Below are positions 3,796-14,369 of a DNA stretch of 35,595 nucleotides, one piece after another (the first letter of the stretch is position 1; each line of letters starts with the position of its first letter). The notes under the pieces were generated by a model that saw only the letters and a program-made list of their open reading frames with translations, had not been told where the DNA came from and ran no database searches. The stretch spans positions 1 through 35,595 of the forward strand of contig JBDKUT010000087.1 in assembly GCA_039679545.1 (NCBI GenBank). Reading direction: 5' to 3'. Made by a program: the position numbers and the translations under genes. Source of the DNA: Thermotogota bacterium. GTDB lineage: Bacteria > Bipolaricaulota > Bipolaricaulia > UBA7950 > UBA9294.

Positions 3796-4956
3796 GTGGA
3801 ACGAGGAGAGACAGGTCGTTACGAGATCACCAACGCCGGAGGCGAGAAAGTGCGCGCCTTCGTCCCCGCCCCTTTGCCGCCTGTTCCACCTCTTGTGCTT
3901 GGTGGGTCACTCGGACAGGAGCTGGAGTCGGCGGTCCTCGCTCTGGGGCGACTCGACGGGGTCTCCGCATTGCTCCCCGACAAGACGCTCTTCCTCTATT
4001 CCTATGTGCGCAGAGAAGCCATTCTCTCCTCTCAGATCGAGGGTACACAGTCGTCGTTTTCCGATCTCCTTCTCGTTGAGCTTGATGAGGCGCCGGGCGT
4101 TCCCCTCGATGACGTCCTTGAGGTGTCGAACTACGTTGCCGCTCTTGAGTATGGGCTGGAGCGCCTCCGCGGAGGGTTTCCGCTCTCCAACCGCCTGATC
4201 CGCGAGATCCACAGCGTCCTCCTCTCCCGCGGACGAGGGAGCGAGAGAAGCTCGGGGGAGTTCCGCCGCTCGCAGAACTGGATCGGCGGCACGCGGCCGG
4301 GCAACGCGGTCTTTGTCCCGCCTCCTCACCTGGAGGTCCCCAACTCCATGGGCGCGTTGGAGCAGTTCCTTCACGCCAGGGATGACGGCCTGCCTGTCCT
4401 CGCCCGGGCGGGGCTCGCGCACGTGCAGTTCGAGACGATCCACCCGTTCCTCGATGGCAATGGCCGTGTAGGGAGGTTGCTCATCACATTCTTGCTCTGC
4501 CATGCCGGCCTTCTGCAGGAGCCGCTTCTGTATCTGAGCCTCTACTTGAAAGAGAACCGAAGCACGTACTACGAACTCCTCGACCGCGTGCGCCGCACGG
4601 GGGACTGGGAGGTGTGGCTTGCCTTCTTCTTTGCCGGGGTGAAAGCCACGGCTGAGGGTGCGGTCTCGACGTCGCATCGCCTGGGAGAGCTGTTCCGAGA
4701 GGATCGGGCGAAGATCGAGCCGAGCGGACGCCGTGTTGGATCCGCGCTCCGTGTACACGAAGCCTTGAAGGCCCGCCCGATCCTGTCTCTACCCCAAGCC
4801 CACCTCGACACGGGCCTGTCCTTCCCGGCGGTATCCTCCGCGATGGATCTCCTTGCCGAACTGGGCATTGCGCGTGAGTTCACGGGCAAGCGGCGGAACC
4901 GTCTGTTTGTGTATGACCGCTATCTCGCCATCCTGAACGAAGGGATGACCGCATAG
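3796..4956 (+). CDS. Fic family protein (AMPylase-type motif) with N-terminal inhibitory helix and probable C-terminal wHTH
   Basis: Canonical HPFLDGNGRVGR motif; SSQIEG fits the (S/T)xxxE(G/N) inhibitory motif; GEFRRSQNWIGG; tail TGKRRNRLFVYDRYL. Confidence 0.92.
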   Translation: MERGETGRYEITNAGGEKVRAFVPAPLPPVPPLVLGGSLGQELESAVLALGRLDGVSALLPDKTLFLYSYVRREAILSSQIEGTQSSFSDLLLVELDEAPGVPLDDVLEVSNYVAALEYGLERLRGGFPLSNRLIREIHSVLLSRGRGSERSSGEFRRSQNWIGGTRPGNAVFVPPPHLEVPNSMGALEQFLHARDDGLPVLARAGLAHVQFETIHPFLDGNGRVGRLLITFLLCHAGLLQEPLLYLSLYLKENRSTYYELLDRVRRTGDWEVWLAFFFAGVKATAEGAVSTSHRLGELFREDRAKIEPSGRRVGSALRVHEALKARPILSLPQAHLDTGLSFPAVSSAMDLLAELGIAREFTGKRRNRLFVYDRYLAILNEGMTA

Positions 4957-4992: not shown

Positions 4993-5448
4993 CTACTCGG
5001 CGGCCCCGGCCAGCTTCTCTCCCAGCTCCCGGCAGGCGCGCAGCACGGCGGCCGTCGGCTTGCCGCGCGACTCGATGGTCTCGCCCACTTGCTTGCCGCC
5101 GACGTACTTGAACAGCTTCTCGAACGGCTCGCGCACGTTGCCACCGCCCCCGTGTGAGTAGAAGAGTCCGTACGGTTTCCCTTCGAGGCCCTGCCGATCC
5201 TTCCCTTTGGCGATGTACCAATCGTCGGCGAAGGTCTTCAGCCCGCCGGCGACGTACCCGAAGTAGTCGGGCGTTCCGAATGCCACGGCGTCCGTCTTGC
5301 GGTACTGGTCCGGGTCGAAGCGGTGCTCGTTCGTGTTGACCAGCTTGACCTTGGCTCCCGCTTCGCGGGCGCCCTCCGCCACGGCCTCGGCCATGGCCTG
5401 GGTGTTGCCGTGCTCTTGTGAGTGGTAGAGAACGAGGACGAGACTCAT
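4993..5448 (-). CDS. Flavodoxin / WrbA-like NAD(P)H-dependent FMN protein
   Basis: FMN phosphate loop YHSQEHGNTQAMAEAVAEG, FGTPDYFG, FYSHGGGG; ATG 5448 preceded by AAGGAGG. Confidence 0.85.
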   Translation of the reverse strand: MSLVLVLYHSQEHGNTQAMAEAVAEGAREAGAKVKLVNTNEHRFDPDQYRKTDAVAFGTPDYFGYVAGGLKTFADDWYIAKGKDRQGLEGKPYGLFYSHGGGGNVREPFEKLFKYVGGKQVGETIESRGKPTAAVLRACRELGEKLAGAAE

Positions 5449-5589
5449 TCCGGCCTCCTTGTCAGTCAATCTTGATTTGTCTGCAAGAGAGTATCGAACT
5501 TTCGAATCGGCGCGAATCCCGCCCGCGACGATGCCTCTGTCGTGACGGGGATCGGGGCGTGTCCGCGATCGACCGTGCGTGCCCTGTTC

Positions 5590-5675
5590 AACCATCCGAC
5601 GCAGGCTGTATTACGTTCCAGTACCTGGCGGACCCGGAAGACAGCGCAATCGAGATCCAGCGCCAGGAGCGCTGA
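5590..5675 (+). pseudogene. Probable remnant (C-terminus only) of a VOC/glyoxalase family gene
   Basis: Reads DAGCITFQYLADPEDSAIEIQRQER*, resembling the VOC terminal motif 'F.Y..DPEGN.IE.Q'; no credible N-terminus or start. Confidence 0.4.
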
Positions 5676-5918: not shown

Positions 5919-6377
5919 ATGGCAGGTGAAGTGCGTTACGGCCCGAATCGGGATGAGATCGTTGCGAAGGTCCTCGATGGCGAAGCCATCATGATCAACC
6001 TGGCGAAAGGCATCTACTACAGCCTCGATGGCGCCGGGGGAAGGATCTGGGAACTTCTTGAGGACGGGAGAAGCGCAGACGAGATCGCCGCCGTGATCGC
6101 TTCCGAGTTCGACGTCATGGCAGAACGTGCACAGGTCGACGTCAACTGCATCCTTCGTGAGCTGCAGAGAGAGGGCCTTCTGCGAGCCGCCCCCAGCAGC
6201 GAGCCGGCGCCGTCTGAGGCGCCAAGTTGCGGACAACTCCATGGAAGGCAGTCCTACCGTAAGCCGAAGCTTACGGTGTATCGAGACATGGCTGATCTGC
6301 TCGCCCTTGAACCCCCCACGCCCGGAACCGATCAAGAGGAGCTCTGGCAGGGCTTCGAGAAGAAGGCAGGTGGCTAG
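5919..6377 (+). CDS. PqqD family / RiPP recognition element (RRE) protein with C-terminal leader-peptide-like extension
   Basis: PqqD pattern DGEAIMINL..GIYYSLD..G.RIWELL..G.S..EI...I..EFDV.......DV...L..L...GLL, a linker, then YRKPKLTVYRDMADLLALEPP. Confidence 0.88.
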   Translation: MAGEVRYGPNRDEIVAKVLDGEAIMINLAKGIYYSLDGAGGRIWELLEDGRSADEIAAVIASEFDVMAERAQVDVNCILRELQREGLLRAAPSSEPAPSEAPSCGQLHGRQSYRKPKLTVYRDMADLLALEPPTPGTDQEELWQGFEKKAGG

Positions 6378-6394
6378 CCCCGCGGCGCTATGGA

Positions 6395-7114
6395 ATGCCC
6401 GAAGACCTGAGAGGGCCACGTATCAGTTGCATCATCCCGACCTTCAATACCGCGCCGTTTCTTGGAGAGGCCATCGAGAGCGTGCTTGAGCAAACCTATC
6501 CTCTCCTGGAGATCCTCGTCGTCGATGACGGGTCCACGGATCGCACCGCGGACGTCGTGCGATCGTTCGGCACCAGGCTCGCCTACTTGGCTCGGCCGCA
6601 CTTGGGAGCGTCGGCGGCGATGAATGCAGGGATTCGCGCTGCCTGCGGCGCGTACATTGCCTTCCTCGACGCGGACGATCTTTGGCATCGAGAGAAGCTG
6701 TCGCGGCAGATGGACTGGCTCGCCCAGAGGGGTGAAGTCGATCTCTGTTTCACTCAGTACCGCAACTTCTGGGTCTCCGAACTCGCCGAGGAAGAGAGGC
6801 TGTACGAAGGAAGCCTCCTCGCTCGGCCCACGTCAGGGTGGAGCGTCTCCACCCTGTTGACCCGCCGGGAGATCTTCGAGCGCTTTGGTTTCTTCGAAGA
6901 GAGCGTGGAAGAGAAGCACCTACAACTCATCTGGGCTCTGCGAGCTGCGCAGCAGGGGGCGGTTGTGGACGTGATTCCCGAGGTCCTCATGGACAGACGG
7001 CTGCACCCTGGGAACATCTCGCGGAGTTGGACAATGGATGAGGGCTTCTTCCGGCTTCTCAGGACCTGGCGGGACTTCAAGACGAAAGAGGCCGAGGCGT
7101 CAGATGAGGAGTAA
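6395..7114 (+). CDS. Glycosyltransferase family 2 (GT-A fold)
   Basis: ISCIIPTFN, EAIESVLEQT, VVDDGSTD, AFLDADDLW. Confidence 0.9.
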   Translation: MPEDLRGPRISCIIPTFNTAPFLGEAIESVLEQTYPLLEILVVDDGSTDRTADVVRSFGTRLAYLARPHLGASAAMNAGIRAACGAYIAFLDADDLWHREKLSRQMDWLAQRGEVDLCFTQYRNFWVSELAEEERLYEGSLLARPTSGWSVSTLLTRREIFERFGFFEESVEEKHLQLIWALRAAQQGAVVDVIPEVLMDRRLHPGNISRSWTMDEGFFRLLRTWRDFKTKEAEASDEE

Positions 7115-7225
7115 CCACCGTGGGAGGCCGGGACGTTCGTACGCCTCGCGGCGATGTCGTTGCGGAGGGGCGAGTCGGGCACGAAGACACCTGGGGAGTC
7201 GACCGCTCAAGCGAGGAGGCGGCCG

Positions 7226-8350
7226 ATGCGCGTGATGTTCTGGTCCGCGGTCTTCTGGCCCTCCATCGGCGGAGTGCAGACCATGGCAGGCGACCTACTC
7301 ATCGCTCTGCGGGAGCGCGGCCATGAGTTTGTCGTGGTCACGGAGCGGGACAGGCCCGACCTGCCGGCGGAGGACCAGTACGAGGGGATTCCCGTCTATC
7401 GATTCCCGTTTGCAGCGGTTCTGAGAAACGCCGAGCGGTTGATGAGGGTTCGAAGCGAGGTCATCCGGCTGAAGCGCGAGTTCGCCGCCGATCTCTTCCA
7501 CTCCTTTGCCGTGAGTGCCAACGATTTTCTGCACCACACGACTCAGGATGTGCATCCTGCTCCTTGGCTTGTCACTCTTCATGGCGCGTGGCCGGACAGC
7601 TGTGACTCCTTCGTTCGAAGGACCCTCACGAGCGCGAACTGGGTCGTCGGCTGCTCGGCGGCGATCCTGGAGCGGGGGCGCGAGCTAGCACCGGAGATCT
7701 CCTCTCACTCCTCCGTGATCTACAACGCGCAGGAGCCCGGTTCCTACCGACCGAGTCCCCTACGGCTTGATCCGCCCGTCTTGCTCTACGTTGGAAGGCT
7801 CTCTCGAGAAAAAGGGGTCGACGTCGCACTCGAGGCTCTCGCCATCCTGGTCCCTCGGTTTCCGAGGATTCGGCTGGTCATCGCGGGCGACGGACCGGAG
7901 CAAGGCGCGCTCCTGCAGCAGATGGATCGGTTGAAGCTGGGATCTGCCGTTCAGTTCCTAGGATGGGTCGCCCCCGAACGGGTGCCGGCACTCCTCGATG
8001 AGGCTTCCATGGTGATCCTGCCCTCTCGGGAGGAGTCCTTCCCCGTCGTTGGATTGCAGGCGGCTCTCATGGAACGGCCGGCCGTAGCGACGCGCACCGG
8101 AGGAGTCCCCGAGATGATTCGGAACCGGAAGACAGGCCTCCTCGTTGAGAGAGAGAATCCCAAGGCACTTGCGGACGCCGTGGTCAGCCTGCTCGGACGC
8201 CCTGACGATGCGCGGCGGATGGGGAGCGCTGCACGGAGGCGGGCGGTCGAGGTGTTCAACTTCGAGAAGCACGTCCGGGCGTACGACGAGTTGTACCACA
8301 TGCTTGTGCCCAACAAGGGCGAAAAGAATGCCGGCAGGCGATCGCTGTGA
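7226..8350 (+). CDS. Glycosyltransferase family 4 (GT-B fold)
   Basis: FWPSIGGVQ, YVGRLSREKG, IAGDGPE, LPSREESFPVVGLQA, GGVPEMI...TGLLV; ATG 7226 preceded by GAGGAGG. Confidence 0.9.
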   Translation: MRVMFWSAVFWPSIGGVQTMAGDLLIALRERGHEFVVVTERDRPDLPAEDQYEGIPVYRFPFAAVLRNAERLMRVRSEVIRLKREFAADLFHSFAVSANDFLHHTTQDVHPAPWLVTLHGAWPDSCDSFVRRTLTSANWVVGCSAAILERGRELAPEISSHSSVIYNAQEPGSYRPSPLRLDPPVLLYVGRLSREKGVDVALEALAILVPRFPRIRLVIAGDGPEQGALLQQMDRLKLGSAVQFLGWVAPERVPALLDEASMVILPSREESFPVVGLQAALMERPAVATRTGGVPEMIRNRKTGLLVERENPKALADAVVSLLGRPDDARRMGSAARRRAVEVFNFEKHVRAYDELYHMLVPNKGEKNAGRRSL

Positions 8351-8423
8351 CGGTGAAGGCGGGGGCGGCTCTCCGAGTGACGCTTCGGCCTCCGACGTCT
8401 CCGGCGCCTGTTTGAGGAGAGCC

Positions 8424-9497
8424 GTGCCTGCGTGGACCGATGAGCAGAGACACGAGCGGATGGGGGTCGCGCACGCGCAAGCGACGCGGTTGTGTCCTGA
8501 CCGAATCCATGAAACGTGGTATACGTTCGGCGGCCGCGTGGTTCGAATGCGCATCGTCGGACATCAACTTGCGGAGCGGCTCGCCTTGCCGTTCGCTCAC
8601 CTCCGGCGCCGGAAGGCTGTGCCTTCCGACGCGAGACTCACCATCGACCTCTGGGATGAGCTGGAAACCGGAGTTCCGGCTGACACGGACCTGCGTCCCG
8701 TCGTCGAGGGCTCCAGCTTCTCGGCGTCGCGAGACGGGAGGTTCGCGACGAGCGTGCTGCAGCACTCGATAAGCAGCCTCGATCGACAGGGAGAGAGCAT
8801 CGTTGGCGTTGCTCTCGATGCTGACCGGCTCTCGGTCTACGAATGCGGTCGCCCGCTGCACGTGCCGCTCAGTCTCTGGTATAACGATCGCGGCGTTCCA
8901 TTGATCCACGCCGCTCTCGTCTCGCATCAGGGAGATGGGGTTCTCTTGGCGGGTCCCAGCGGAGCGGGAAAGACGACGTCGGCTTTGTCCTGCCTGTTTG
9001 CCGGTTTCCATTACTTGGCGGACGACCTGGCTGGGCTGGAGATCCCCGCTGATGGTGCCGCTTGGGGACACAGCGTCTATGGCTCGGCGTTGGTTGACCA
9101 GGGAACGCTCCTCCACCTGCCGACCCTCAGACCCCACGCCATTCTTGGGAACCACGGGCGCGGAGACAAGCGGCTCGTCTTCATCTCCCAGGTCAGCCCG
9201 ACCGAACTCGCAGGAAAGACAAGGATCCGCGCCATCGGCCTCGTACGTGTCGCCAACGCAGCTTGTTCTCACGTCCGGCCTGCCGCGAAGGGCGAGTCAT
9301 TGATGACCATGATTCGGAGTACGCTGCAGGGTGGAGCGCTCAGCCCGGGCAGACAGGGATTCGAGCTGTTGGGACGTCTATGCGGCGACGTTCCGTCGTT
9401 CTGGTTGGAGCTGGGACGCGGCGTCGAGGATGTCCCACGGTGTATCCTCGAGCTTCTCGTGGGCCGTGGGGAGTTCCCAGGAGGTAGAGTTCCGTGA
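8424..9497 (+). CDS. HPr kinase-related P-loop kinase (copy 1)
   Basis: IHAALV, Walker A GPSGAGKTT, YLADD. Start uncertain: GTG 8424 after GAGGAG, or ATG 8328 / 8460. Confidence 0.8.
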   Translation: MPAWTDEQRHERMGVAHAQATRLCPDRIHETWYTFGGRVVRMRIVGHQLAERLALPFAHLRRRKAVPSDARLTIDLWDELETGVPADTDLRPVVEGSSFSASRDGRFATSVLQHSISSLDRQGESIVGVALDADRLSVYECGRPLHVPLSLWYNDRGVPLIHAALVSHQGDGVLLAGPSGAGKTTSALSCLFAGFHYLADDLAGLEIPADGAAWGHSVYGSALVDQGTLLHLPTLRPHAILGNHGRGDKRLVFISQVSPTELAGKTRIRAIGLVRVANAACSHVRPAAKGESLMTMIRSTLQGGALSPGRQGFELLGRLCGDVPSFWLELGRGVEDVPRCILELLVGRGEFPGGRVP

Positions 9498-10615
9498 CAC
9501 CCGGGCCCGTGGGCTTCAGAGCGGCGTCGGTGTCCTGCGGCCGAAGTGGAGAGGTGGCGTTCTCCGCCATGCGGGAGACGTACGGGAAAGCGCTCCGCGC
9601 CAAGCCCGGTGAGGTCTCGACGACCCGCTTCGTCCTGGCGGACGCACCCGTCTCCCTGAGGATCGTGGGGAGCCGCCTGGCTACGTTGATCGGTGCCTCT
9701 TTTCGCCATCTGTTGAGCCACTCAGATGTAGGGATCTCTCCCCGCCTCACAATCGATTTGTGGGATGAGCGCGCCGCAGGGATTGGGTGTCCCCGCGCTG
9801 CGAGGGAAGCGGGGGAGAGGGGAGAGGCGAGACAAGAAGAAGATACAGGGATTGCGGTTGGGGCAGCAGAGGATCGCTATGTGGGGCACCTTCGTCCGGG
9901 AATCCGTTTGTGGATGGATCGCCGCGCCGCTCACGTGGTCGGCTGTGTGACGAGCACTGACGAGCTTACGATCCAAGATCGAGGAAAGCCGTTGTACTTC
10001 CCGTTGCTTCTGTGGCATGCGGATCGAGGGGTGCCCGTCATCCACGCGGCGCTGGTATCCACTCGCGGTGGAGGAGCTCTACTGGTCGGGAAGGGAGGGA
10101 GGGGGAAGACCACCGTCGCTCTCGCCTGCGTGCTTGGCGGCCTTGGCTTCCTCGGCGACGACTACATCGGGCTCGAGCAAGCAGGAGCCTGTCGGTTCGT
10201 AGGCCACAGCCTCTACGATTCCGTGTGGCTCACCGCGGACGGTGAAGCCCGCTTCCCTGCCCTTGTCCCGTATGCCGAGCCGCCGGAGCGTTCGAGTTCC
10301 ATGGCTCGACGCCTGCTTCATATGTCCGATGCCACGCCTGATAGGCTCGGGCGCTCAGTCCCGATTCGCGCCGTCGTGGCTACCGTCCTCAGCACCGAGC
10401 AATCCTCCTCTCTTCAGCCCGTCTCGCAGGCTGCAGCCCTTCTCGCGCTGGCTCCGAGTTCCATGCTTCGTCTTCCCGTCTCAGGAACGGCCTTCTTCGA
10501 ACGGATGTCGCGGTTGGTTGAACACGTACCGACCTACGAGCTGGCGGTTGGACTGAACACAACCACTCTGGTCCCCCTCGTGAGGAGGCTGCTTGAGCTG
10601 GAGGACCCGCGCTGA
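9494..10615 (+). CDS. HPr kinase-related P-loop kinase (copy 2)
   Basis: IHAALV, Walker A GKGGRGKTT, FLGDD; GTG overlaps the upstream TGA (GTGA) with GGAGG upstream. Confidence 0.82.
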   Translation: MTPGPVGFRAASVSCGRSGEVAFSAMRETYGKALRAKPGEVSTTRFVLADAPVSLRIVGSRLATLIGASFRHLLSHSDVGISPRLTIDLWDERAAGIGCPRAAREAGERGEARQEEDTGIAVGAAEDRYVGHLRPGIRLWMDRRAAHVVGCVTSTDELTIQDRGKPLYFPLLLWHADRGVPVIHAALVSTRGGGALLVGKGGRGKTTVALACVLGGLGFLGDDYIGLEQAGACRFVGHSLYDSVWLTADGEARFPALVPYAEPPERSSSMARRLLHMSDATPDRLGRSVPIRAVVATVLSTEQSSSLQPVSQAAALLALAPSSMLRLPVSGTAFFERMSRLVEHVPTYELAVGLNTTTLVPLVRRLLELEDPR

Positions 10616-10634
10616 AAACTCTGGGGAGACGCGG

Positions 10635-13016
10635 ATGAGGCCAGTCCTGTCCGATACGCTCTCGGTTCTTCTTCCGACAGAGGAGGAGACGCTCCTGCTG
10701 CGCGCTTGCCTGTGCTCCCCCGACGTGGCCGAGGAGGCATGGCGCGCGTGGCTGAGGGGCGTCGGGGATCCGAAGAAAGAGCTCTTGCAACGTCGCCCCG
10801 TCCTCGTGCACCTTCTTCCACTCTTGCACTCGTCGATGAGGCGCTGGGATGCTGAGCTCCAGAGCGAATTCGGTTTCTGCCTTCGCGCCGCGCACTTCCG
10901 TGAGGAGCTGCGCAGTCATGCCTATCGAGACATCCTCCGGAGGGTTCTTCGGACTCTGGCAGACGAAGGGATCGAGGTCACGGTCCTCAAGGGTGCTGCA
11001 CTTGCGGCCACGGTCTACGGCGACTGGTCCCTTCGTCACTGTCATGACATCGATCTCCTCCTTGATCAGGTGAGTCTTGCGGCGGCATCCAGAGTCCTGC
11101 AAGACACCGGCGCCGCACAGAGGTGCGGCCCCGGGCGAGCGTCGCGAGACGTTCGGCTTCTTCACAAGAGCGGCCTCCCGATTGAGCTTCAGGCGGATCT
11201 CTTCGGCCATCCCTTCTACCAGAGGGGGGCGGCCCGATTGGTAGACTGCAGCCGGAGGGCGGAGATCGTCGGGGTTCCGACGCGTGTGTTGTCGCCCGCA
11301 GCAACGCTTCTGCACATCTGCGGGCATGCGTCGTACTCGGAGAGCCGCGCCAGCCTCCGGTGGGTAACAGACGCATGGACCCTCACGGCGAGGTGTGCCG
11401 ATCTTGATTGGGCCGCCTTCCTCTCGGATGCTCGACAGGTGAATCTCTCGTTGCCTCTTCATGTGATGCTCGAGTATCTCGGCGTCGGACTCGGCGTCGC
11501 GATCCCTCCTTCTGTCCTGCAGACCCTCGCACGGGATGCTCGACACGTGGGAGCCACCGCCCGCGAAGCGGCCCTGGTGGGAGTACACGAGAATGACCGA
11601 AAACTCCGTACGGCGACACGAGACTGGAGATCGAGAGCGGTCCTCTGGAGATGGGCTCTCCTTCCGTCGCCCTCCTCCCAGCGGTGGACCTGCGACGCAC
11701 GCCCGAGACGTGAAGTCCTTCTTCTTCATCTCAACCAGGGGGCACGCTTCGCTGCCCGACGCGCGCGGCTTGCGCTGGCACGGTCCGATAGGGATCGGCG
11801 AACAAAGCGGCTCCCCTCTGGAGAGAACGAAATGAGAGACGGGATGAGTGTCGTGGAAAAGCGTCCGTGGATCCCCACAGAGCGGCAGGCGCTCTTGGTC
11901 CGGTCCGCCCTCCTCGAGCGCGAGCCGGCGATTGACGCATGGAACCGATGGAACGCGACCGGCGGTCTTGAACGCATCGACGACGGCTCGTCAGCTCTGC
12001 TGCCGATCGTCTACCGAAACCTTGCCGGGTATGGAGTGAGCGATTCCGCGCTGAAACGCGCCCAGCAGGCCTACAAGACCACGTGGCTTGAGAACGAACG
12101 GCGCTTCCATGAGATCGCCGCCGTCCTCGAGGCTCTCAACGCGGCCGGAATCGAGACGATGATCCTGAAAGGCGCTGCCCTCGCGCTCCTCTACTACCGA
12201 GATCTCGGTCTTCGTTCCATGGGCGATGTCGATCTGCTCGTGCATCCTCGGCAGCTGCACGAAGCGCTCGCCGTCCTTCGCGACGCCGGATTCTGCATTG
12301 TGGGACGCCCCCCGGAGTTGCTGACGGACGTCTACCTGTTCTCTCGCAAGGCCATCAACCTGGCCTCGGCGGGCATGTCCATGCTTGACCTCCACTGGCG
12401 AGCCATTCAGGAAGTTCGCTCTGAAAGCGAAGAGAAGGCGTTCTGGGACGGGGCGACGACGGTCAGTCTCCACGACGTACCGACTCAGGCGATGAGTGCG
12501 GCGGACCAAGTCCTCCATGTCTGTGAGCACGAAACCCGATGGTGCCCGTCTCCCCTTCCGCGGTGGATGGTCGATCTCGTCATGATCTTCCGAGTCGCGG
12601 GGGATGCGTTCGACTCCGATCGCACCCTGGACCGCGCGCGGAGCCTTGAGCTGGTCAGCCCGCTTGCCGAAGCGCTTGAGTGTTTGGACACGGTCGTTCC
12701 TCACGAGGTCCCCCAGGAGCTGCTGCAGGGGGTGCGTCTCGCTCGCGCGACGCGCCGGGACCGACGAGACTACGAAGCGCGATGCCGCAGACCCGGGCCT
12801 CTACAAACGTTGCGTGACGAGTATCGCGTCCATTGCGATCGAACCGTCGACCAGAGCAGAATCCGTCGCTGCTTGGGCTTCCTGCAACACGTTCAGGCCC
12901 TGTGGGGACTAGAGCGACTTTGGCAGCTGGTGCCGCGCCTCTGGATGTGGGTGTGGCACACCGCCTGTCGGATCGTGTCGGAAAGCGACGGGCGAGCGCA
13001 CGGCGGCCAGAGGTGA
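10635..13016 (+). CDS. Nucleotidyltransferase family protein (NTP_transf_5-like), two tandem domains
   Basis: Two copies of the signature: VLKGAALAATVYGDWSLRHCHDIDLLL and ILKGAALALLYYRDLGLRSMGDVDLLV; each half opens with PTE...LL.R..L. ATG 10635 preceded by GGGGAG. Confidence 0.85.
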   Translation: MRPVLSDTLSVLLPTEEETLLLRACLCSPDVAEEAWRAWLRGVGDPKKELLQRRPVLVHLLPLLHSSMRRWDAELQSEFGFCLRAAHFREELRSHAYRDILRRVLRTLADEGIEVTVLKGAALAATVYGDWSLRHCHDIDLLLDQVSLAAASRVLQDTGAAQRCGPGRASRDVRLLHKSGLPIELQADLFGHPFYQRGAARLVDCSRRAEIVGVPTRVLSPAATLLHICGHASYSESRASLRWVTDAWTLTARCADLDWAAFLSDARQVNLSLPLHVMLEYLGVGLGVAIPPSVLQTLARDARHVGATAREAALVGVHENDRKLRTATRDWRSRAVLWRWALLPSPSSQRWTCDARPRREVLLLHLNQGARFAARRARLALARSDRDRRTKRLPSGENEMRDGMSVVEKRPWIPTERQALLVRSALLEREPAIDAWNRWNATGGLERIDDGSSALLPIVYRNLAGYGVSDSALKRAQQAYKTTWLENERRFHEIAAVLEALNAAGIETMILKGAALALLYYRDLGLRSMGDVDLLVHPRQLHEALAVLRDAGFCIVGRPPELLTDVYLFSRKAINLASAGMSMLDLHWRAIQEVRSESEEKAFWDGATTVSLHDVPTQAMSAADQVLHVCEHETRWCPSPLPRWMVDLVMIFRVAGDAFDSDRTLDRARSLELVSPLAEALECLDTVVPHEVPQELLQGVRLARATRRDRRDYEARCRRPGPLQTLRDEYRVHCDRTVDQSRIRRCLGFLQHVQALWGLERLWQLVPRLWMWVWHTACRIVSESDGRAHGGQR

Positions 13017-13133: not shown

Positions 13134-14369
13134 CTAGACGGACTCGTCGACCCGCTTTCCTTGTGCGGCCGACGGTCGCCACGCGATGAGCGCGAGCGCC
13201 GCGAGAAGTGCCACTCCCGCGCCGAAGTAAAACGGAGACGGAGCCCCGAACCGGTCCCACAGAGCCCCGGCCAGAATCGAGGCGGGGAGTCCGATGACAC
13301 CGATGACGGTGTTGTAGATCCCGTAAGCGGTGCCGCGTGAGTCGACGGGGACGAGATCCGCGACGAGCGCGCGCGCCGTGCCGTAGGCCGTTCCGTAGTA
13401 GACCCCGTAGATGAGGTACAGGAGCCACATCGTCCACTGTGCGTGGGCGATAGCGATGCCGAAGTAGATGGCCGCGTAGAGAAGCCAACCGCCGACAATC
13501 AGCTTCTTGCGGGGAATGCGGTCGGAGAGGGCGCCCGCCGGCGCGGCGACGAGCGCGTCGACAAGGCGAAAGAGGGCGAGCATCCCGAGGGTGGCGAGCA
13601 GGTTCGCCCCGAGCGAGCGAGCGCGAAGGATGATGAACGCGTCGGCCGAGTTGCCGAGCTGGAACAACGCGACGATGACGAGGAAGAGGAAGAACGGGCG
13701 TCCGAGGGACCGTTTCGTCGCTGTGCGATCCACTTTTGGAAGCGAGACGTCGTGTGCCCCGATGGCGAGCGCGAGGACGGAGAGAGCGGCGGGGACGACG
13801 CTGATAATCACAATGATGGAGAACGTGTGGGCCTGCAACTCGGCGGCCGCGCCCTGCGTAAACCAAACAGCGAGCATCGCGACGACGATGCCGAGCATCG
13901 TTCCGCCGGCATCCGCCGCTCGTTGGAAGCCGAACGCAAGCCCGTGCTTCTCTCTCTTGACCGAGTCGGCGACGAGCGCGTCGCGCGGCGCGGCGCGAAC
14001 CCCTTTTCCGACGCGGTCGACCCAGCGTGAAAGGGCGACCGTCGTCCAGGAGTTCGCAAAGAGGAAGACGGGGCGGACCGCGGCGGAAATTCCGTAACCG
14101 AGCACGGCCAGCCACTTCCGCTTCCCGAGGCGGTCGGACCACCAACCGGAGACGACGCGCAGGAGGGACGCCGTCGACTCCGCTCCACCTTCGATTAGGC
14201 CGATGAACGTCGGCTTCACCCCAAGCACGCTCGAGAGGAAGAGCGGAAGGACGGTTAGGACCATCTCCGACGACACGTCCATCAGGAAGCTCGTGATCGA
14301 GAGCGTCCAGATGTTCCTCGGAAGGCGGCGGGATTCCTCATGAGCGGTGCGCCCCAGGCTGGCGGTCAT
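13134..14369 (-). CDS. MFS transporter
   Basis: About 12 hydrophobic segments; SFLMDVSSEM, motif A GWWSDRLGKRK, DRVGKGVRAAPRDALVADS. Confidence 0.92.
   Translation of the reverse strand: MTASLGRTAHEESRRLPRNIWTLSITSFLMDVSSEMVLTVLPLFLSSVLGVKPTFIGLIEGGAESTASLLRVVSGWWSDRLGKRKWLAVLGYGISAAVRPVFLFANSWTTVALSRWVDRVGKGVRAAPRDALVADSVKREKHGLAFGFQRAADAGGTMLGIVVAMLAVWFTQGAAAELQAHTFSIIVIISVVPAALSVLALAIGAHDVSLPKVDRTATKRSLGRPFFLFLVIVALFQLGNSADAFIILRARSLGANLLATLGMLALFRLVDALVAAPAGALSDRIPRKKLIVGGWLLYAAIYFGIAIAHAQWTMWLLYLIYGVYYGTAYGTARALVADLVPVDSRGTAYGIYNTVIGVIGLPASILAGALWDRFGAPSPFYFGAGVALLAALALIAWRPSAAQGKRVDESV

Follow-up and report, generated by a model that had tools for sequence, protein, structure and literature searches.

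What does an operon of peptide-tailoring type act on when no separate precursor gene travels with it? This question is raised by six co-oriented genes at positions 5919..13016 (+ strand) of contig JBDKUT010000087.1 from a Thermotogota bacterium (assembly GCA_039679545.1; Bipolaricaulota in the GTDB lineage), of which we analysed a stretch of 35,595 nucleotides, referred to below as the window. From 5' to 3' the operon encodes a PqqD-type recognition element (RRE) of the kind used for peptides that are made on ribosomes and modified after translation (RiPPs), a family 2 glycosyltransferase (GT2), a family 4 glycosyltransferase (GT4), two HprK-like kinases and a protein with two NTP_transf_5 domains; all six are real open reading frames (ORFs), and all frames are open. 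A preliminary description of this DNA had recognised the six genes and their bounds, a divergent flavodoxin gene and a convergent MFS gene, all of which ORFs and Pfam matches confirmed, and had proposed that the set modifies a linear peptide or protein or, alternatively, a cell-surface glycan with the RRE as scaffold. We found that the RRE protein carries a lasso-type leader as its own C-terminal tail: the leader is part of the RRE, so that a separate peptide gene is not needed. The features of the cassette are listed below.

5919..6377, + strand: RRE (PqqD/B1-like) protein, 152 amino acids, with its own leader as C-terminal tail (Pfam PqqD; nearest folds TbiB1/TfuB1; tail motif in 120 of the 120 homologues listed)
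5934..6191, + strand: RRE domain, residues 6-91; the exposed sheet face E22, I24, I26, Y33, S35 is the predicted dock of kinase 1, and D74 matches LppB D70 (PMC13381572)
6192..6248, + strand: variable linker, residues 92-110 (mean conservation 0.24; predicted local distance difference test (pLDDT) 62-66)
6255..6305, + strand: leader-like segment Y113-A129, YxxPxLxxYxDMxDLLx (profile alignment; strand and pLDDT; predicted interface)
6306..6374, + strand: core-like segment L130-G152, L[DE]PPxPG...W (register from PMC13381572 and PMC10368454)
6395..7114, + strand: GT2 glycosyltransferase, short and soluble, 239 amino acids (Pfam 117.9 bits; cassette-tied clade)
7226..8350, + strand: GT4 glycosyltransferase, 374 amino acids (Pfam 135.4 bits; longest ORF from 7154; cassette-tied clade)
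8424..9497, + strand: kinase 1, HprK/phosphoenolpyruvate carboxykinase fold, 357 amino acids (H162, K183, D200 and D201 intact; helices 288-321 are the predicted RRE dock)
9494..10615, + strand: HprK-like kinase 2, 373 amino acids (catalytic motif intact)
10635..13016, + strand: double NTP_transf_5 nucleotidyltransferase, 793 amino acids (DxD intact, D138/D140 and D531/D533; a fusion of two paralogues, which many other loci encode as separate genes)

The PqqD match covers residues 22-88 of the RRE protein (58 bits; cut-off 23.4), which bears only the protein atlas label 'PqqD family protein' and whose close homologues are labelled Candidatus Bipolaricaulota; its nearest folds are those of lasso B1 proteins. 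Of the 152 residues, the PqqD domain takes up those to about 91, and the roughly 60 C-terminal residues beyond it hold, after the variable linker, a conserved leader-like motif of lasso type, YxxPxLxxYxDMxDLLxL[DE]PPxPG...W, which recurred in every one of the 120 homologues listed, a sample biased by a query that included the tail. Mean conservation was 0.94 over residues 122-133, compared to 0.65 over the RRE and 0.24 over the linker, and in the profile alignment the tail positions Y, P, L and D were kept in 321/343, 338/346, 324/345 and 333/339 sequences, respectively. The structure model assigned a pLDDT of 95 to residues 111-120 and a strand to residues 118-121. Discrete lasso RREs bind a YxxPxL motif (PMC12710340, PMC13381572), the leader Tyr being bound in LppB by D70, and leader-free RREs are unstable, LppB being insoluble and PbaB1 marginally folded (PMC13381572). 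D74, the aligned equivalent of LppB D70, is kept in 288 of 313 full-tail RREs. Judging by pLDDT, secondary structure, the complex interface described below and analogy with these proteins, the tail is predicted to be ordered and is likely folded into the RRE groove, and the RRE very probably binds its own leader in cis. In the mainly open-access literature we found no description of an RRE that is joined to its own leader, and the supplements of PMC13381572, PMC7470986 and PMC12710340 could list such proteins.

Proteins with more than one RRE point the same way. In ten tandem-RRE proteins, a YxxPxL-like segment follows most repeats (by eye), and the full tail follows one repeat at most; because most repeats carry such a segment, the leader strand acts as if it belonged to the domain. 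The two- or three-RRE proteins P0219, P0130, P0139, P0269, P0121-P0127, P0211 and P0231 keep the full tail in one repeat only. Fusions to enzymes were also seen: P0219 joins three RREs to a kinase, one protein joins a GT4 and another a C5-epimerase to a tailed RRE. Two longer forms turned up among just 7994 candidates scored, and fusions are thus under-sampled.

A predicted complex of kinase 1 with the RRE protein scored 0.78, compared to 0.01 for the best of three controls, against a score mark that 116/157 solved pairs and 2/215 mismatched pairs reach and that is rough here, own alignments and ATP/Mg having been used; the runs agreed in at least 44% of contacts, and partner pLDDT was at least 72. 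In the model, kinase helices 288-321 cover RRE residues 15-35 plus tail residues Y121 and D123, and the interface includes E22, I26, Y33, S35, Y121 and D123. I26, Y33 and S35 align with L22, L29 and K31 of LppB, which contact the peptidase LppS in the published model and of which the L22 and L29 mutants give poor cleavage (PMC13381572). The kinase is thus predicted to take the RRE face that the peptidase uses in the linear polyphosphorylated peptide (LPP) system, no peptidase being present here, with the tail strand beside the RRE sheet, a placement that accounts for many invariant residues. Kinase 1 probably docks on the RRE, and the model supports the RRE dependence of the kinase on which the preliminary description had staked its proposal. 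BsfB1 accelerates the kinase BsfK (PMC10368454). The top rows of our structure searches, which were not exhaustive, held no solved RRE-kinase complex.

The same model bears on S35, the sole near-invariant Ser/Thr of the RRE protein (S in 296 and T in 8 of 313). Its conservation tracks with the full tail in tandem proteins, where it is present in 9/10 full-tail repeats and in 3/16 other repeats, as would be expected if S35 were the phospho-acceptor, like Ser46 of HPr, and the folded protein a carrier. Against this, S35 packs in the model against residue 294 of the docking helix and the catalytic residues 162, 183, 200 and 201 lie outside the confident interface; at the equivalent of position 35, LppB has Lys and TbiB1 has Gly, as would suit a packing site specific to the partner. 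Phosphorylation of S35 is therefore a very unlikely account of the cassette.

The enzymes were assigned as follows. Both kinases match Hpr_kinase_C below the cut-off (23.3 and 23.9 versus 33.3 bits), but a profile of 54 relatives matches HprK structures at E 8e-7 (P-loop region), and the catalytic His, Walker A Lys and Asp-Asp are kept in both proteins and in 54/54, 54/54, 50/54 and 53/54 relatives, respectively, so that the earlier designation as HPrK-like kinases holds. The model of kinase 1 (pLDDT 94) gave a two-domain match to phosphoenolpyruvate carboxykinase (template modelling score 0.56). The kinases fall outside the HprK/P family proper (TIGR00679, about 23 bits versus a cut-off of 240) and match the NCBIfam HprK-related kinase families A and B (TIGR04352/TIGR04355) only weakly (22-32 bits versus 200), so that they are not members. 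These two families mark PqqD-kinase cassettes of unknown role. The two NTP_transf_5 (PF14907) domains scored 135.5 and 129.7 bits, and a search by sequence gave no solved relative for the nucleotidyltransferase. Across the six proteins, mean hydropathy over 19 residues peaks at 1.59, and none shows a clear membrane segment. The His-Lys-Asp-Asp motif is typical of lasso kinases (PMC9266682, PMC10368454), and in PsmN the D134/D136 pair is required to add hexoses to phosphoserine (PMC6993621). By analogy, we consider it reasonably likely that the cassette carries out phospho-glycosylation, a chemistry that we infer from these characterised enzymes.

The cassette recurs widely. A profile search (E up to 1e-30, 1.84 billion representatives) returned at least 217 tailed-RRE clusters at 50% identity, and 75 loci span Gemmatimonadota, Acidobacteriota, Pseudomonadota, Planctomycetota, Actinomycetota, Bacteroidota, Nitrospirota and others. 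Locus L044 (genome G028) was left out of the locus, genome and tail counts. Of the 74 loci examined, 63 pass a strict tail pattern, three more have a second tail subtype and one is frameshifted. GT2, GT4, kinase and nucleotidyltransferase genes occur in 58, 55, 53 and 46 of the 63 tailed loci, and in 38, 34, 34 and 33 of the 38 that are at least 15 kb long, 27 of which hold all four. Of 49 genomes searched, 45 have a match to the GT2 of the window and 39 one to its GT4; the best match stands no more than 10 kb from a tailed RRE in 41 and 36 of them, respectively. The two glycosyltransferases are thus not chance neighbours, and matches number up to 8 (GT2) and 7 (GT4) per genome. One such genome (8 GT2 and 7 GT4 matches) has three equal-scoring tailed-RRE copies within 9 kb (L010:2709-11182, G005:C13), through amplification or as an assembly artefact.

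A decayed lasso cluster, or glycosyltransferase genes that happen to stand next to a PqqD gene, could be imagined at this locus, since the RRE is closest to lasso B1 proteins and a match to the B2 peptidase exists somewhere in 24/49 relatives' genomes. Yet none of the 37 B2 matches lies within 10 kb of any of the 65 tailed RREs, the nearest being a weak match at 12.7 kb, and several strong ones adjoin untailed RREs instead, one of them in a plain lasso-type cluster. The recurrence of the four enzymes together, the open frames and the intact catalytic motifs argue in the same direction, leaving this explanation with next to no probability; the decayed-lasso reading, which the preliminary description had named as its refuting case, is refuted by the B2 distance test, the recurrent enzyme set and the intact frames and motifs. 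AsnB-like genes occur in 5/63 tailed loci and look like amidotransferases: most have a Met-Cys start and glutaminase domains, whereas the cyclase of a control lasso locus lacks the Cys. That control, L097:7857-11884 (G003:C11), comprises B1, B2, methyltransferase and cyclase genes, and its precursor was not found by the small-ORF scan. An S24/S26-like cluster seen in untailed loci had no match in any of the 63 tailed loci (BLAST, which could miss distant forms). The absence of a cyclase and of a B2 peptidase noted in the preliminary description is thus true of the operon and of the cassette family, as it is of the genome search described below. We conclude that the cassette is real, intact and widespread and that its architecture is well supported.

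Within the family, the tail subtypes [DE]PP and DP[IV]H track the two main kinase clades of a quick tree: 13/14 rows of one clade have DP[IV]H tails, and the other has [DE]PP in 38/39 loci. Because this is a single split, it reflects joint inheritance, not co-evolution. In the organism's own phylum, 6/151 genomes match, 5 of them over the tail, and the other tail subtype turns up in two genomes from the same family, which suggests separate gains. The combination of two kinases with a fused double nucleotidyltransferase is common to the operon and to loci L005 and L007, which have three GT4 genes versus one here. Glycan-type neighbours recur among the 63 tailed loci: ABC genes in 20, SDR/epimerase in 16, AGE epimerase in 6, Wzm in 5, AsnB in 5, sulfotransferase in 4 and Wzx in 3. 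A radical SAM gene is present in 8/63 (L011, L014, L026, L033, L034, L040, L072 and L010), with a SPASM domain in the one scanned representative of the larger group.

The organism's own genome (2.35 Mb, 93.55% complete, so that absences are not proof) was also searched. Its only PqqD match is the operon's own, with no second RRE found; the B2 peptidase (PF13471) had no match; and no lasso cyclase was found, the lone Asn_synthase match being a glutamine-dependent NAD synthetase (by eye) on another contig. One S24/S26 gene, on contig C131, was taken as the housekeeping signal peptidase. The tail profile had no second match under E 0.1 in this genome, and a noisy small-ORF scan with many chance matches, judged by eye, yielded no recurring family with the leader motif near the cassette besides the tail itself. 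These results weigh on the idea that the tail merely holds the place of a true Ser precursor encoded elsewhere, stabilising or gating the RRE until that precursor displaces it, the whole being an LPP system with a remote precursor. The instability of free RREs without a leader (PMC13381572) speaks for it, as does the fact that such kinases, where characterised, phosphorylate serines of peptides; the two negative searches speak against it, of which the genome-wide one did not extend to divergent precursors, and a placeholder would have no need to keep 12 residues past the binding strand at a conservation of 0.94. We rate it as quite improbable.

The cassette resembles the tailoring half of two kinds of known cluster, as the preliminary description had proposed for the paeninodin/pseudomycoidin type and as the enzymes bore out for LPP clusters too, yet it is a member of neither. 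The LPP clusters of Bacillota (lppA/K/B/S/D/N; Popov et al. 2026, PMC13381572) likewise combine an RRE, an HprK-like kinase and an NTP transferase without a cyclase, have a YxxP leader held by a conserved Asp, lie in polysaccharide-gene surroundings and dock enzyme helices on the RRE-leader sheet; the His-Lys-Asp-Asp kinase and the NTP transferase, here two PF14907 domains with DxD, were both found. In LPP clusters the RRE is discrete and the precursor (YxxPxVLxHQxIxFETxxS) separate, a SipW-like peptidase and an MsbA-like exporter are present, and Ser+3 is essential (PMC13381572), whereas the cassette has its leader fused to the RRE, a different motif, Asp/Glu-Pro at the acceptor register and GT2 and GT4 as core members. 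Neither a SipW-like (SpI) peptidase nor an MsbA-like gene is in the window; one S26 gene lies on another contig, and an ABC gene is present in 20/63 tailed loci. In five loci (L065, L067, L069, L073 and L075; Thermodesulfobacteriota/Dadabacteria-type), untailed RRE pairs are accompanied by an S24/S26-like protein, by an HprK-like kinase of a different sort and by several glycosyltransferases, and these loci look LPP-like outside Bacillota; at L071:7208-7603, in a Planctomycetales bin, an RRE with a third type of tail (short, YxxPxV, ending soon after) stands beside an S24/S26-like gene.

With the kinase-bearing lasso clusters (paeninodin, PadeK; pseudomycoidin, PsmK/PsmN; Bradymonas bsf; PMC6993621, PMC10368454, PMC8498205, PMC9266682) the cassette shares a B1-type RRE, a YxxPxL leader, a His-Lys-Asp-Asp kinase and a DxD nucleotidyltransferase, and with BsfA a hydrophobic residue at the -2 register (PMC10368454). 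It differs in lacking B2, cyclase, separate precursor and conserved Ser and in having two kinases and two fused nucleotidyltransferase domains; the tail has Leu both at -2, where lasso precursors have Thr/Ile, and at +1, where theirs is a small residue, and no separate gene was found. A third likeness is to the PlpY/PcpY activator RREs and the engineered leader-enzyme fusions called ConFusions (PMC11414181), in which the machinery itself provides a leader or leader-like element that activates the enzyme on leaderless substrates. Those cases concern radical SAM spliceases or engineered enzymes, whereas the cassette is a natural lasso-type leader-RRE fusion.

What, then, is the acceptor? Numbering the tail from the leader Tyr as position 1, with counts by profile alignment, the phosphorylated Ser falls at position 19 in LppA (Tyr-16, Ser+3; PMC13381572) and at position 20 in BsfA (Tyr-17, Ser+3; PMC10368454). 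In the tails, position 19 is D in 296, E in 40 and N in 1 of 337, and position 20 is P in 334/337, the pair in the operon protein being E131-P132. Positions 11, 12, 15, 16 and 18-21 hold no Ser/Thr in any tail, and 45/334 tails have no Ser/Thr at all after position 10. LppK takes Ser only and rejects Thr and Tyr (PMC13381572), and BsfK takes Ser or Thr (PMC10368454). Because no Ser/Thr stands at the acceptor register and these kinases demand one, the tail is not an ordinary core.

With confidence a little short of even, we favour the reading in which the RRE protein is a permanently loaded adaptor for a kinase-glycosyltransferase set that makes a phosphate-linked glycan on another acceptor; that the acceptor lies outside the tail, taken alone, we hold slightly better than even. 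This reading draws on the glycan-type neighbours, the variable glycosyltransferase numbers, the tailed-RRE fusions and the precedent of PlpY for an RRE as activator (PMC11414181). It starts from the arrangement described above, in which RRE and leader motif form one protein and the cassette comes without a separate precursor, a peptidase or a cyclase. The tail strand would complete the RRE sheet, and the C-terminal helices of the kinase would pack on the face that the peptidase occupies in LppB. The kinases, by comparison with PadeK, PsmK, BsfK and LppK, would phosphorylate a hydroxyl, adding one or more phosphates; the nucleotidyltransferase domains, by comparison with PsmN, would set a first sugar on that phosphate; and GT2 and GT4 would extend the chain into what we infer to be a cell-envelope glycan or glycoconjugate. 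As a guess, the tail Asp/Glu may mimic the phosphoserine of a precursor, with the acceptor being the growing sugar chain or a Ser/Thr of a protein encoded elsewhere.

Several observations weigh against this reading. An RRE usually serves to present the core that hangs on the leader it has bound, and here that core is the tail. No outside acceptor was found, and we know of no characterised kinase of this kind that phosphorylates a sugar. The predicted complex comprises one kinase only and places no tail residue past 123 with confidence. The operon's own tail carries T134 and T137, and tails are conserved past the leader register (P20, P21, P23 and W30), as a substrate might be; the S35 pattern in tandem repeats suggests that docking seems to matter where the core-like part sits. 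Each of the three enzyme fusions is a single cluster and possibly a gene-calling artefact, the KG..DxD pattern occurs in just 41/75 nucleotidyltransferase-like ORFs, and the operon has no exporter or flippase gene.

The close rival is a fusion of RRE and precursor in which the tail itself is the substrate: the docked kinase would phosphorylate the Asp/Glu of [DE]P, giving an acyl phosphate, or a nearby variable Ser/Thr such as T134, and the nucleotidyltransferase, GT2 and GT4 would build a glycan there, the protein being the product or a reusable carrier. The register matches that of real precursors, with D/E at position 19 in 336/337; the operon tail is the only one in the genome; the tail subtype follows the kinase clade (a single split); S35 is kept mainly in full-tail repeats; and conservation extends to W30. 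Opposed to these stand the lack of a conserved hydroxyl, with 45/334 tails devoid of Ser/Thr after position 10, the rejection of Thr and Tyr by LppK (PMC13381572), the internal position of the full tail in P0219 and P0269, where it is not C-terminal, and the lack of a core-releasing peptidase linked to the cassette. To our knowledge, no member of the HprK-like kinase family makes an acyl phosphate. We regard modification of the tail as possible, if somewhat doubtful. Its more specific form, in which the tailed RRE is a reusable cytoplasmic carrier whose [DE]P carboxylate the kinase phosphorylates, with the paired nucleotidyltransferase domains loading and then handing on a sugar chain built by GT2/GT4, seems unlikely, and Asp-Pro self-cleavage with glycan cross-linking, drawn from an analogy, is left as speculation, 40/337 tails, the operon's included, having Glu-Pro. 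The adaptor reading and the tail-as-substrate reading are close, and the lack of a conserved tail Ser/Thr tilts the balance slightly to the scaffold. The preliminary description was right about the tailoring set but missed that the leader is fused to the RRE; of its two proposals, the modification of a linear peptide or protein remains close to the cell-surface glycan alternative, toward which the missing Ser/Thr gives that slight tilt.

Sugars and export could come from elsewhere. A glycan locus in the same genome (L103, G000:C32:1361-14457) encodes an ABC-2 permease and ATPase, a UDP-GlcNAc 2-epimerase, an NAD-dependent epimerase, a SIS and NTP-transferase protein and a GHMP kinase, and is a possible source of both. 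Its ATPase is 51% identical to the ATPase directly upstream of the cassette in L007.

As to the layout of the operon, ribosome-binding sites and homologue starts make 7226, 8424 and 10635 likelier starts than those of the longest ORFs for GT4, kinase 1 and the nucleotidyltransferase, which gives intergenic gaps of 17, 111, 73, -4 and 19 bases. GC content is similar to that of the flanks, a promoter scan found no site, terminator-like sites occur at about the chance level (9 versus 5.9 +/- 2.4 expected), and the operon had no cover in three runs of one study, which is evidence neither way on expression. Its boundaries are as follows.

4993..5595, - strand: flavodoxin-like gene, divergent, left boundary, outside the cassette (close relatives L005/L006 have an epimerase upstream instead)
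13134..14369, - strand: MFS transporter gene, convergent, right boundary (also adjoins the cassette in L005, 74% identical; not recurring elsewhere)

Beyond the flavodoxin gene lies a Fic_N and Fic protein (3796-4956, +) whose Fic motif looks intact. A 749-residue fusion of WD40 repeats with a papain-family (C1) peptidase (158-2407, -), also outside the operon, was not seen as a recurring cassette neighbour.

RiPP logic presupposes a separate precursor, which an RRE catches by its leader; here the leader is part of the RRE, in at least 217 clusters from many phyla. Some of the longer PqqD proteins without annotation, which make up 21% of PF05402 matches (PMC12710340), may be tailed RREs. The six-gene set, with no clear membrane segments, would allow a direct test of PF14907 function, which was left open for PsmN, BsfN and LppN. 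If the tailed RRE is a carrier, a glycan would be assembled on a protein phosphate instead of a lipid phosphate across many bacterial phyla, by a RiPP-derived system that unites chaperone, leader and substrate in a single chain. If instead it is an adaptor, RiPP parts would have been recruited to the making of cell-envelope glycans, which would bear on the reason for which paeninodin and LPP clusters are found in capsule loci.

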